Virus record (IMG/VR): IMGVR_UViG_3300025715_000024
Span: 5,456 to 69,455 of that record
Reading direction: 5' to 3' (one strand)
Source: a virus
Taxonomy: Duplodnaviria > Caudoviricetes
DNA length: 64,000 bases
Positions within the stretch are counted from its first letter, which is position 1, and every line of letters begins with the position of its first letter. Below the pieces are notes generated by a model. The model worked only from the letters and a program-made list of their open reading frames with translations, searched no databases and was not told where the DNA came from. A program made the position numbers and the translations under genes. Positions 8,423 to 13,320 of the stretch are shown here, in pieces.

Positions 8423-8451
8423 CGAAATCTCCTTTGCTTGGTATTTTTAGA

Positions 8452-8569
8452 GTTCCTCAAACGTCCTCGAATGTTCCTCAAATTTCCTCAAATGACCTCA
8501 ACCGTCCTCTCGTTCCTCAAAGTTCCTCATGTTCCTCAAAGTTCCTCGACTTCCTCAAAGTTCCTCAAG
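8452..8569. repeat. Iteron-like tandem array, about 12 copies of GTTCCTCAAA-like units
   Basis: Intergenic 9-11 bp units directly downstream of the primase-helicase gene. Confidence 0.75.
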
Positions 8570-10295
8570 CTAGATGCCAGCCAACTCCAAATTCATGTGG
8601 TGGATTTGGGTTAAACTCGAATTTACACCCAGCAGCAAGAGTAAAATGGCAGTGGTGTCCATTAGGATTTGCGAATGGGTCAGCCCATATTTTCCCCTTT
8701 TTAATCAACAACGTACCTGGGGAGATGCTCAGGTACAACCTAGCTCGGTTCAGTGTTCCGGCGCCGCCAAAACCAAGGTCTCTGCCCTCCGGTTTTTGGA
8801 TGGCAATGATAGCAATTCCGCCTTTCAACTTGTCAGCAATCTGCCTGATTCGCATTCCCATCTTGTACGCTTCAGCATCAGAACCTTCATCTAGATAATC
8901 AATAATATTAAAACCTTCGGGGTCTATTTTGTCTGGGAAATTATCAGTCCGGAACTGGAATTTAATGCCTTCCCATGAGGACATAGGCTCGTTAAATTTA
9001 TCCAGTCTTATCCGCAATTCAGTGCCGTCATTCATCTCGCTTGATAAGTAATTAATCTTGAATTTGTCTTTGTTCATGAGCGCAGTTCTTAAGCAAAACG
9101 CGGTCTTACCAGCATTACTCTCACCGGCAATGACAACAACATTGCTGCGATGAATCTTAACTTTTTTCTCAATATACAATGGAAATGTCACATCCAAAGG
9201 CGTAATATCGGCATTTTTCCAGTCAATTAATTCCTCTTCCCTGTCTATCGTCCTAAAAACACCGGAAGTTTTGCCTTCTTTAACCAATAATCCCTCTTGA
9301 ACGAGCTTATGCAGGCAGTTGTTTACAGTCTTGCGGTCTTGTTTTGAGGACATTTGGAGAACTTTGAGGACATTTGAGGAACTTATGAGGCCATCTGAGG
9401 AACAAACGAAGTCCCGAACTTCGTCAATTACGGATTTTTCTCGGCGGAGAGAGCGCTGAAAAGCTGACTCAAAAGTTGTAACTAATTCTTTTTCATCTAC
9501 CGGCGGAACACAATTAAGTCCAATGAATTTAACTGTTTCCCAAGCCACATCTCTTGGGCTGCCGCCCTTCAGCATTGAGTGGGCTGTGTGAAAAATGTGG
9601 TCATTTCTCTGTCCTTCGGAAAAGAGAACGCTCATGCCCGGCGAGGAAATTCCTCGCTCCGTGTATATATTATTTTTATTTATATTATATATACTACTAC
9701 TACTAGAGTACGTAGTACTCTCTATGCCCCCTATCCCACCTATACCCTTCCCACCCCTATGATGCTTTAATATATTAATATAAGCATTAGGTAGTTCTAG
9801 TAATGGAATATCTTTTAATGATTTATTATTAATCCATGCATACGGGTTCCCCGTTCCATTCGCTGAAGGCGGAACCAGGATGTAGCCGCCTTCTCCCCTA
9901 AAGTCTATGCCAGGGAGTGCAGCGGTGTTTATTGTCAACCTCTCATTCATGGGATATTTATAATACAGGTGCTCGCCACCCCTGGGGGTGGTGGCTGTGG
10001 GCGTCTTATCATGCTCTGCAAAAAAATCATAAGCGATAGCTGGGTCGAAGTCCGGCTTATGCGAATCAAAATCTACAACGCAAATGCCGGATAGCTCTCC
10101 GGTGACAATAGCGATGTTATAATTTGGCTCTTCTTTAAACCATGCATTAACTTCTTCTGGAGTGGCTATGCGTTTCCTAAAAGGCTCTACTTTGAATCCT
10201 GCTGGTGGTTTCTTCTGCCCTGGGGTAATTGGTATTATCGAATAGCCATGCTCGACATACCACAATGCTGCTTCTAAAGTCTTATTTGTGCCCAT
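8565..10295 (-). CDS. Bifunctional primase/polymerase fused to a RecA/SF4-like helicase
   Basis: Prim-Pol motifs NIAIVTG...VVDFD, TPRGGEHLYY and IDFRGEGGYILVPPS. C-terminal Walker A AGESNAGKT. RBS GGGAG before ATG at 10295. Confidence 0.85.
   Translation of the reverse strand: MGTNKTLEAALWYVEHGYSIIPITPGQKKPPAGFKVEPFRKRIATPEEVNAWFKEEPNYNIAIVTGELSGICVVDFDSHKPDFDPAIAYDFFAEHDKTPTATTPRGGEHLYYKYPMNERLTINTAALPGIDFRGEGGYILVPPSANGTGNPYAWINNKSLKDIPLLELPNAYINILKHHRGGKGIGGIGGIESTTYSSSSSIYNINKNNIYTERGISSPGMSVLFSEGQRNDHIFHTAHSMLKGGSPRDVAWETVKFIGLNCVPPVDEKELVTTFESAFQRSLRREKSVIDEVRDFVCSSDGLISSSNVLKVLQMSSKQDRKTVNNCLHKLVQEGLLVKEGKTSGVFRTIDREEELIDWKNADITPLDVTFPLYIEKKVKIHRSNVVVIAGESNAGKTAFCLRTALMNKDKFKINYLSSEMNDGTELRIRLDKFNEPMSSWEGIKFQFRTDNFPDKIDPEGFNIIDYLDEGSDAEAYKMGMRIRQIADKLKGGIAIIAIQKPEGRDLGFGGAGTLNRARLYLSISPGTLLIKKGKIWADPFANPNGHHCHFTLAAGCKFEFNPNPPHEFGVGWHLA
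9343..9403. repeat. Six TTTGAGGAAC-like units at about 10-bp phase inside the primase-helicase gene
   Basis: Reverse complement of the 8452-8569 motif, with an exact match at 9373-9382. Confidence 0.65.
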
Positions 10296-11681: not shown

Positions 11682-12119
11682 ATGAGCTTCTATAACATGG
11701 TCCACGGAGTTACCCCCGCAGCTCTTTTGATTCTCCCGATGCTTGGGAAGCACCCGGACGAGTATCCGCGGTTCAGGGATTGCTTCCTGGCTGACCAGGA
11801 GCACCCTGAATTTGATGACCACATCCACGTTTTTACGCGTGTTGGTGGTGGAAATAGGGGCTGCGGCTTTGGAGAGGAAGAGCTATATAAGCATCCGGAA
11901 TACGTCACGACCTTTGATGACTCTTTCGATAGCACATACGCCTCTTACGTATTTAAGGTTCCGGAGAAGTGGAAGGCTGATTACGATAAGATGAAAGCCG
12001 GAAAGTATCATGAGGTCTCTCAAGAGTATAAGGACGAGATATTAAGGATTTATCCGACTATGAAGGAGAAAATAGAAGGTTTTTTCAACAAGAAAAAGGA
12101 GGCAGGGGAAAATGGCTGA
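11682..12119 (+). CDS. Conserved phage hypothetical protein
   Basis: MSFYNMVHG...YPRFRDCF...IHVFTRVGGGNR...DDSFDSTYASYVF, RBS GAGG. Confidence 0.7.
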   Translation: MSFYNMVHGVTPAALLILPMLGKHPDEYPRFRDCFLADQEHPEFDDHIHVFTRVGGGNRGCGFGEEELYKHPEYVTTFDDSFDSTYASYVFKVPEKWKADYDKMKAGKYHEVSQEYKDEILRIYPTMKEKIEGFFNKKKEAGENG

Positions 12120-12333
12120 GCTTACTGACAAAGAAGTGGCGACAAGGTTTACATATCACCCGCCGAACGCATCGCAACTGCCGCGCTATCAGTTACTTCG
12201 GAGGAGTGGACTGGAGCTGGCCAGTATAATTAATCGGTTATGCCCATCATCGCGTGAGACTGCCTTGGCCTTTACGAGGTTGGAAGAGGCCATAATGTGG
12301 GCAAATGCTGCCATCGCCCGAAGGGAATCATGA
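12112..12333 (+). CDS. Acb2/Tad1-like helical hairpin protein (candidate anti-defence nucleotide sponge)
   Basis: RFTYHPP N-terminus and SRETALAFTRLEEAIMWANAAIAR C-terminus. The latter resembles the Tad1 C-terminal helix as I recall it (S-R-E-x-A-x-A-x-T-x-x-E-E-A-x-M-W). Confidence 0.55.
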   Translation: MAELTDKEVATRFTYHPPNASQLPRYQLLRRSGLELASIINRLCPSSRETALAFTRLEEAIMWANAAIARRES

Positions 12334-12653
12334 AAATAACCGCCATCACAAAATTAAAACAGGGCGACATTTACCTGGCAATGCGGGAGCTTGGATGGAG
12401 TCAGCAAGAATTGGCCGATGGCGTCCTGGAACGCCCCATCCGTGCACAAACCATGCAGGGACCCCGCGTCTCCTTAATACGTTCTGACGCGATTTTGCAG
12501 GGCAAGGAGCTGGGGTTTACACTCAACCTCATCCCCCATAAAGAACTTAACAAAGACCTTCTCAAAGAATTGTTGGAGTATGGGATGTTTAATGGCCTAG
12601 GTCAGTGGCGCAGCGGTTCCTATGGGCAATTTGAAGTTGTTTCCTTTAAATAA
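12330..12653 (+). pseudogene. Chimeric ORF: XRE-HTH N-terminus fused to the C-terminal part of a RAMP/Cas7-like protein
   Basis: About residues 1-29 read MRELGWSQQELAD (first half of an HTH). The rest reads GVLERPIRAQTMQGPRVSLIRSD...LLEYGMFNGLGQWRSGSYGQFEV, ending in a RAMP-type glycine-rich loop. Confidence 0.6.
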
Positions 12654-12657
12654 TTTT

Positions 12658-12680
12658 GGATGGGGGCGAAAGCCCCCTCC
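12658..12680 (+). other. GC-rich GAAA tetraloop hairpin at the head of the pentamer array
   Basis: GGA-T-GGGGGC-GAAA-GCCCCC-TCC, with no U-tract after it. Confidence 0.75.
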
Positions 12681-12692
12681 TACGCAAAGTTA

Positions 12693-13144
12693 TGGCGAAG
12701 CGCAGATGGGTCGTGTGGTGGTATGGCATGGCGGAGCAATGCCGCGCCTGGGCATAGTAAGTTCATGTGGAGGTAAAATTAAGTGGAGTCTGGCGCAGGC
12801 AAAGCCAAACGATGTATAGCCTAGGTTGGGCACAGAACTGTGGGGCAACACCATGTTGCGGTAGTGCGCCGTCGCGTTGCGGTATTGCGGTCCATAGAGA
12901 TGCACTGGTTTTGTTTGGTAAGGCGATGAGAAGTGACGGCATTGCATTGCAGGGCGCCGTTATGGTTTAGCTTGGTCGGGTGTGGTATGGCGCAGCGTGG
13001 GCATGGTAAAGTCTAGCCCAATAAAGGCATAGTTTAGAATTGTGTTGTGGGGGTAGGGCATAGCCAGGAAACGCGCAGCATAGGTTGAGCGCGGCACAGC
13101 ACGGTCTAGCTTCGGTGTTGTGCGGCCCAGTTGAGTGGTGGTAA
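12693..13144 (+). ncRNA. NGY-NN pentamer array (VIPR/vrRNA-like candidate guide RNA array)
   Basis: Hand parse of 12693-13138 gives 86 pentamers in 16 blocks. 74 of 86 start NGY (34 GGY, 20 AGY, 15 TGY, 5 CGY). The last two bases vary. No credible ORF. Directly follows the RAMP-like gene. Confidence 0.7.
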
Positions 13145-13320
13145 TGAACAAGGATACCTGGAACCAAACGATTAACGCAGATATGGGATGTGTATGCCGA
13201 TATGACATGCACATATTTTACAGCACGCGGCGTGGTGAAATTCCGCGCTGCATTAAATGTGGACAGAAAGAGGTGAGGTATGGAAGAGATAGCAAAAAAA
13301 ATATTCGAAAAAGCAAATGA
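13144..13320 (+). CDS. Small Zn-ribbon-like protein
   Basis: CVC and RCIKCG motifs. Confidence 0.4.
   Translation: MNKDTWNQTINADMGCVCRYDMHIFYSTRRGEIPRCIKCGQKEVRYGRDSKKNIRKSK

Follow-up and report, generated by a model that had tools for sequence, protein, structure and literature searches.

A probable recombination scar joins the start of a regulator gene to the end of a vipr-family gene in a wastewater phage that keeps a vrRNA-like array

VIPR systems combine a phage-borne minimal RAMP protein (Vipr), an accessory gene (vap) and vrRNAs (10.64898/2026.04.26.720920, 10.64898/2026.04.26.720927), the last being GGY/NN pentamers or repeats of a related consensus (e.g., YNNNG) that lie in the intergenic DNA flanking vipr (2026 VIPR preprints). 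Vipr is the RNA-guided silencing protein of such a system and works as an RNP with vrRNA, with silencing of DNA targets following a 1-nt-skip rule. Residues H17 (strand beta-1), K33 (helical bundle) and E71/M72 (helix-1) of SUSP1 Vipr make contacts to G1, the target backbone and Y3, and residues R138 (thumb) and D177/W178/R179 (G-loop) make contacts to G1, G2 and Y3 (10.64898/2026.04.26.720927). Loss of the protein gene has been described as well: a vipr-vap1 deletion has left 346 VIPR-null phages of Enterobacteriaceae with 1-2 solo vrRNAs, for which targets in rival VIPR loci, satellites or phages are predicted, and in SUSP1-like phages these solo vrRNAs are kept and used after vipr is gone (10.64898/2026.10.15.759431). 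Here we describe another vipr-null phage, from a different Vipr clade and a different habitat. The stretch of DNA analysed (64,000 nt, the window) corresponds to bases 5456-69455 in a virus record that is 69,455 bp long and bounded by direct terminal repeats (DTR), and the features that concern us are as follows:

12112-12333, plus strand: gene for an Acb2/Tad1 hairpin-domain protein of 73 aa (Pfam PF24729, E 1e-19; phrog_1454)
12330-12653, plus strand: chimeric ORF of 107 codons, made of an HTH start and a vipr 3' part (ORF call, relatives)
12330-12404, plus strand: codons 1-25, which come from a regulator gene of the P0005 type, with HTH_3 and Sigma70_r4 (56/75 nt against L011)
12405-12416, plus strand: crossover interval, codons 26-29, QELA CAAGAATTGGCC, encoded in both parent gene types (8/12 nt against each relative)
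12417-12653, plus strand: codons 30-107, encoding the last 78 residues of a Vipr RAMP (against P0156/L033, 90% identical in aa and 84% in nt)
12662-12677, plus strand: GC hairpin with a GAAA loop, GGGGGCGAAAGCCCCC, then a leader to 12693, CCTACGCAAAG (conserved in L033)
12694-13138, plus strand: vrRNA-like array, 14 blocks of 4-7 xGYNN pentamers (lag-5 z 8.6, block parse)

A first-pass annotation of this DNA, made from the sequence by itself, had described a plus-strand ORF at 12330-12653 that switches from an HTH start to a RAMP/Cas7-like protein at about position 12417. We found the 107-codon ORF as described, and its switch could be placed more closely: 12417 is the first unambiguous vipr base, and the crossover itself lies within 12405-12416. 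The ATG of the ORF overlaps the TGA of the upstream 73-codon Acb2/Tad1-like gene (ATGA). A database search with the chimera returned two sorts of partial relatives, proteins of the P0005 type and proteins of 155-190 aa. P0005 (185 residues, HTH_3 + Sigma70_r4) matches chimera residues 1-29 only, which have 79% identity to its start in the protein search (tblastn E 7.8e-11; own-genome search E 3.7e-10). The 155-190 aa relatives align to the chimera from DGVLERP through to the C-terminal end, and a search among longer proteins identified the intact P0156 (192 aa), residues 111-192 of which correspond to chimera residues 26-107 with 90% identity (E 9e-53); residues 110-121 of P0156 read GQELADGVLERP.

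At the DNA level the change of parentage is sharp. Codons 1-25 match the P0005 gene (L011) at 56 of 75 nt and the P0156 gene (L033) at 22 of 75, the four QELA codons match either one at 8 of 12 nt, and past the junction L011 matches at 7 of 33 nt (after codon 29) and L033 at 84% of positions (between 12417 and the stop codon). Identity to L011 therefore drops from 75% in codons 1-25 to 21% beyond the junction, and identity to L033 before the junction is 29%. Base composition has no break at this point. The junction peptides are SQHELAR in P0005 and GQELADG in P0156, and the microhomology-driven joint that had been proposed is supported in that QELA is encoded by both parent types. Comparison with both sets of relatives confirmed the ORF at 12330-12653 as a chimera of a regulator start (29 codons) and a vipr end (78 codons).

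The family of the C-terminal parent is a very large one. Searches with the full-length relative P0002 gave 1,656 cluster representatives (clusters at 50% identity, Vipr-like family) at E-values up to 0.001, with a typical length of ~200 aa. An AlphaFold (AF2) model of P0002 built from a 66-sequence alignment (pLDDT 92) is a single-RRM RAMP, and in Foldseek searches it matched type VII Cas7, Csm3, Cmr and Cas7-11 modules (E 3e-7 to 1e-4), the top matches being to type VII Cas7 and Csm3 (E ~3e-7 to 1e-5, TM ~0.55). Searching the PDB with the family profile (hmmsearch) found type VII Cas7 (E 0.001), the G-loops of Csm4 and the chain named 'SUSP1 Vipr protein' (E 0.066). The family profile A2 aligned end to end with the SUSP1 vipr product (hhalign E 1.5e-5, probability 79%, 169 columns), with the SUSP1 G-loop GVGDWRPRFGRF placed opposite the family's GLGQWRNGGYGRF, and the same loop is present in the window ORF as GLGQWR..G.YG.F. 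As the family has a RAMP fold and aligns over its full length with SUSP1 Vipr, Vipr is a more exact name for it than Cas7. The RAMP part of the first identification holds, and by these profile and model comparisons the C-terminal parent family is a distant clade of Vipr.

Among CRISPR effectors, Cas7 and Csm3 are the best structural matches of the full-length family, and type VII Cas7 and Csm4 can be aligned with it at the G-loop motif. However, sequence identity to these proteins is 12-16%, the family has a single minimal RRM, and guide handling would be by pentamers as against the 6-nt periodicity of Cas7/Csm3. The surroundings also differ from those of a CRISPR effector, as repeat finders located no CRISPR-type repeats in the window, no cas families were among the Pfam matches of the genes surrounding the ORF, and no CRISPR array or Rfam family was found in 12654-13279. 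With neither CRISPR repeats nor cas neighbors, we rejected membership of the CRISPR-Cas Cas7 proteins. Neither CRISPR array nor cas genes accompany the described VIPR systems, and further points in common with those systems are a parent family of ~190-aa single-RRM RAMPs with a thumb and a W-R pair in the G-loop, carriage by phages, and non-coding period-5 G-pyrimidine repeats with variable dinucleotides alongside. The locus departs from them in that the protein consists of the last 78 residues only, the repeats of this clade are xGYNN (the first G being degenerate) instead of strict GGYNN, the array is continuous, in 1-nt-offset blocks and without a pseudoknot tail of the SUSP1 type, and a conserved vap gene beside vipr was not seen in the loci examined.

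What remains of the Vipr domain is close to half of it. The first-pass reading of the RAMP as truncated holds, as only positions ~88-194 of the 196 in the family profile are present in the chimera, and the part in the window corresponds to residues 110-187 of the P0002 model. Mapping onto that model (alignment A4) indicates that the thumb (a long beta-hairpin), one strand, helix alpha-2, the G-loop GLGQWRSGSYGQF and the last strand are kept and that strand beta-1, the helical bundle, the second hairpin and helix-1 are absent; a complete Vipr needs strand beta-1, the bundle and helix-1 for its contacts with RNA and DNA. In the hhalign alignment the counterparts of SUSP1 R138 and D177-R179 fall in the retained half and those of H17, K33 and E71/M72 in the missing half. 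The regulator part is more fragmentary still: of the HTH_3 domain, which in P0005 runs from residue 15 to 61, it has only helix 1 and the beginning of helix 2, and no Pfam family matched the chimera at E-values up to 10. The chimera thus resembles XRE-family regulators with HTH_3 and sigma-70 region 4 in its first 25-29 residues and its start codon context, but it has neither the recognition helix nor the sigma-r4 domain, and we rejected its assignment to the HTH_3/XRE regulators because it holds no complete domain, with 29 residues in common with P0005 and no Pfam match. A model of the chimera itself (pLDDT 67, pTM 0.46, residues 1-20 below 50) forms only the hairpin and one helix pair, with no RRM. 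Judged from the alignments and this model, the predicted product cannot act as a Vipr or as an HTH regulator, and is a fragment of a Vipr and not a Vipr. Two apparent natural ORFs of the C-terminal Vipr part, P0004 and P0149, were discarded as artefacts of N-filled scaffold gaps. 'C-terminal Vipr' proteins of 67 and 100 aa in public sets (L068, L069) are N-gap artefacts within full-length genes.

Downstream of the ORF lies a gene-free stretch of 626 nt in which G-pyrimidine (GY) dinucleotides on the plus strand are spaced with a period of 5. Measured against dinucleotide-preserving shuffles, the GY autocorrelation has z values of 8.6, 4.8 and 3.8 at lags 5, 10 and 15, respectively. For the tracts downstream of intact relatives z is 9.5-11, and for the SUSP1 positive control it is 9.1; there is no signal in coding controls, and gene interiors range from about -2 to +1. 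We scored ~40 loci that have an intact relative and sufficient flanking DNA: in at least 34 of them z exceeds 4 in the 400 nt downstream of the gene, and in a few the period-5 signal is on the upstream side instead. Phase-sensitive Fourier power failed on these tracts because of the 1-nt offsets between blocks, where autocorrelation worked. The strict YNNGG unit gave one 4-unit run only. Preceding the array, the hairpin and leader (12662-12693) are 85% identical to positions 784-812 of L033; the hairpin at 12662-12677 has no T-run and was not called as an intrinsic terminator, and the two elements may serve the array in processing or as a 5' handle.

The array itself occupies 445 nt. Every block opens with GGY, and most neighboring blocks are 1 extra base apart, a few being separated by longer non-repeat stretches. 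The same block architecture is present in L033 (813-1100) and L008 (954-1231), with blocks of 4-8 pentamers across the three arrays and a super-period of ~21-41 nt. The first VIPR preprint mentions 'staggered arrays' (10.64898/2026.04.26.720920), and our 1-nt-offset blocks may be what that term describes. Compared with L033, the window array has 47% identity overall, the G position being 85% conserved and the other positions 30-48%, a pattern as would be expected for variable guides on a fixed scaffold. Unit conformity is ~0.89, which is that of L033, where vipr is intact. An exact 15-mer, GGCGATGAGAAGTGA, occurs within these hypervariable arrays once in the window (12922-12936) and twice in L033 (at 998 and 1055, 57 nt apart), and may be a conserved vrRNA boundary or handle.

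The first-pass annotation had suggested looking for an intact copy elsewhere in the genome, and there is none in the 69,455-bp record: P0002, P0005 and the family profile each match only the chimeric ORF. Direct terminal repeats usually mean a complete genome. The CheckV completeness estimate for this DTR record is 63%, which leaves some room for a second vipr outside it, and on these searches the phage is vipr-null within the 69,455-bp record (CheckV 63%). One run holds a contig of 78 kb as against the 69,455-bp record. As in the VIPR-null phages with solo vrRNAs, a functional vipr would have been lost by deletion with vrRNA-type repeats kept at the old locus. In the SUSP1-family phages, however, both vipr and vap1 are gone completely (~1.1-1.4 kb) and 1-2 solo vrRNAs remain, whereas here the deletion is partial, an in-frame expressed chimera is left, and the tract is 445 nt long (14 blocks). 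The Vipr clade, the host and the habitat (wastewater, activated sludge, anaerobic digester) are different as well.

Among JGI and Logan assemblies, which cover many samples, at least 21 contigs encode the exact 107-aa chimera. Six copies that we fetched, compared over as much as 4 kb, have 99.9-100% identity to the window; the source runs are from anaerobic digester, activated sludge and wastewater and date from 2016-2025. An abrupt change of parentage is what an assembly chimera would also produce, and misassembly had been raised at the outset, but nothing further speaks for it. The identical junction recurs in the JGI and Logan assemblies of many samples, and position 12417 is spanned by single contigs (41 kb, 6.7 kb, 1.9 kb and 1.7 kb) that come from four different studies, one run each, two of these runs being metatranscriptome libraries. 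In these contigs the junction is free of variant letters, joints and loose ends. This excludes misassembly to the point where we consider its chance negligible. A genuine evolved fusion, a RAMP with an HTH head acquired for DNA binding, would fit the open frame and the intact start signals. Against this, neither domain is complete (29 residues of an HTH_3 that spans 15-61 in P0005, with no Pfam HTH match), an N-terminal HTH is present in none of the recovered Vipr relatives, and the fusion is seen in one near-clonal phage only and not in diverged relatives; conservation of the same fusion in relatives, which the first-pass annotation had named as the sign of a real fusion protein, was thus not seen, and we hold this origin to be extremely improbable. 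We conclude that the ORF is very probably a recombination scar. In the event that we propose, illegitimate recombination would have fused an XRE-type HTH/sigma-r4 regulator gene, at codon 26-29, to vipr, at codon 111-114. This would have been either an internal deletion (~0.8 kb or more) or a joint between two phage genomes, the crossover falling inside the 12-nt QELA-coding stretch common to both genes and the reading frame being kept thereby. Since the QELA peptide at the crossover is shared and in frame, a fusion in frame follows without invoking selection. The scar has left the phage vipr-null, with the hairpin, leader and array staying in place and the ORF still coupled to the early operon.

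Scans of viral contigs with the 145-aa, 196-aa and Prim-Pol neighbors and P0005 as queries found no undeleted ancestor or syntenic relative, and a metagenome scan with P0156 gave relatives of at most 63% identity in other gene contexts. As that ancestor was not found, the size of the loss, the content in between and any DNA-level microhomology of the actual parent genes are all inferred. L033 is a contig of just 1.1 kb, and its upstream ORF is unrelated to P0005. Positions 1-23 of this Logan contig are Illumina adapter (the reverse complement of AGATCGGAAGAGC...), so the first part of that upstream 'ORF' is artefactual. In ~45 loci examined, no P0005-like gene lies beside an intact vipr, and the idea of the P0005-like gene as a conserved VIPR accessory (vap) was rejected since no homolog is near any intact vipr examined; L017 alone has an HTH_3 gene upstream of vipr, and it is unrelated to P0005. 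Because no P0005-like gene accompanies intact vipr elsewhere, the HTH gene was probably a mere upstream neighbor in this lineage and not a VIPR accessory. One further contig, from SRR35946892, carries the same 107-aa chimera, but the downstream genes are of 108, 101, 54 and 91 aa, in place of those of 110 and 196 aa, which suggests a second, mosaic strain background with the same scar.

Turning to what the locus may still do, we lean toward the explanation in which the ORF is such a scar, the phage is vipr-null and the array still acts as solo vrRNAs. Solo vrRNAs from the array may be loaded onto Vipr provided by a relative, either co-infecting or resident, and by analogy with the SUSP1-like phages we give such in-trans use of the orphan array slightly less than an even chance. 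The same scar might instead have left the whole locus inert, the deletion being recent and both the chimeric ORF and the array being relics that have not yet decayed. The copies of 2016-2025, at 99.9-100% identity over 4 kb, speak for a lineage that is young or clonal, and they are too alike for selection on the array or the ORF to be read from them. Codon differences from P0156 (23 synonymous : 8 non-synonymous) reflect past constraint with a loss that is not datable, and fit a fragment that was under selection until recently. No targets of the guide blocks in the phage's own genome (skips 0-3) rose above the permuted-guide null, the blocks carrying 8-14 informative bases and being too short for significant target calls, and contigs from RNA libraries are thin over the array, which is a weak hint in the same direction; they leave 12926-13141 uncovered, a gap from which we conclude nothing. 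An array as regular as that of the nearest locus with an intact vipr (L033) and the precedent of solo vrRNAs kept and used after vipr loss (10.64898/2026.10.15.759431) argue against an inert locus, and we regard it as unlikely. A dominant-negative role of the expressed fragment is possible, in which it would bind GGY repeats, or cap or poison the Vipr filaments of rivals, as an anti-VIPR factor, perhaps with the array. R138 and W178/R179, through which SUSP1 Vipr touches repeat bases G2 and Y3, have counterparts in the fragment, and its ORF is translationally coupled to an Acb2/Tad1-like anti-defence gene, is present on contigs from RNA libraries and has accumulated no stop codon or frameshift. 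But half of the RRM sheet and helix-1 are gone, the AF2 model (pLDDT 67) consists of a hairpin and one helix pair only, the in-frame state follows from the shared QELA codons with selection not needed, and we found no other natural C-terminal-only Vipr ORF, the two candidates examined being scaffolds with N runs. We therefore find a functional anti-VIPR fragment very unlikely, and give the same slender chance to the proposal that the 107-aa remnant and the 445-nt orphan array together form a hijack-and-jam module against rival phages, outside the phages of Enterobacteriaceae. Most likely the chimeric gene itself is an ordinary scar.

The VIPR remnant adjoins a gene (12112-12333) that likely encodes an anti-CBASS/anti-Thoeris sponge. 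Other neighbors are a Cro/CI-like HTH gene on the opposite strand, a Prim-Pol gene, a PD-(D/E)XK exonuclease gene and a sugar-modification cluster. Just after the Prim-Pol gene there are tandem 10-nt AGTTCCTCAA-type repeats, with inverse copies inside Prim-Pol (window 8451-8568 and 9343-9403); these look like iterons and may mark a replication origin.

The locus provides a clean natural loss of vipr outside the SUSP1 family, with a breakpoint that is resolved to 12 nt, and it repeats, in a distant Vipr clade and a different habitat, what was described in the SUSP1-like phages: the protein is lost and the guide tract is kept. GY lag-5 autocorrelation offers a simple signature that flags arrays beside most members of the very large Vipr-like family. 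The thumb-plus-G-loop fragment is ready-made for testing as a filament poison, and, with the phage present in wastewater-type samples from 2016 to 2025, its long orphan array can be tested for use in trans.
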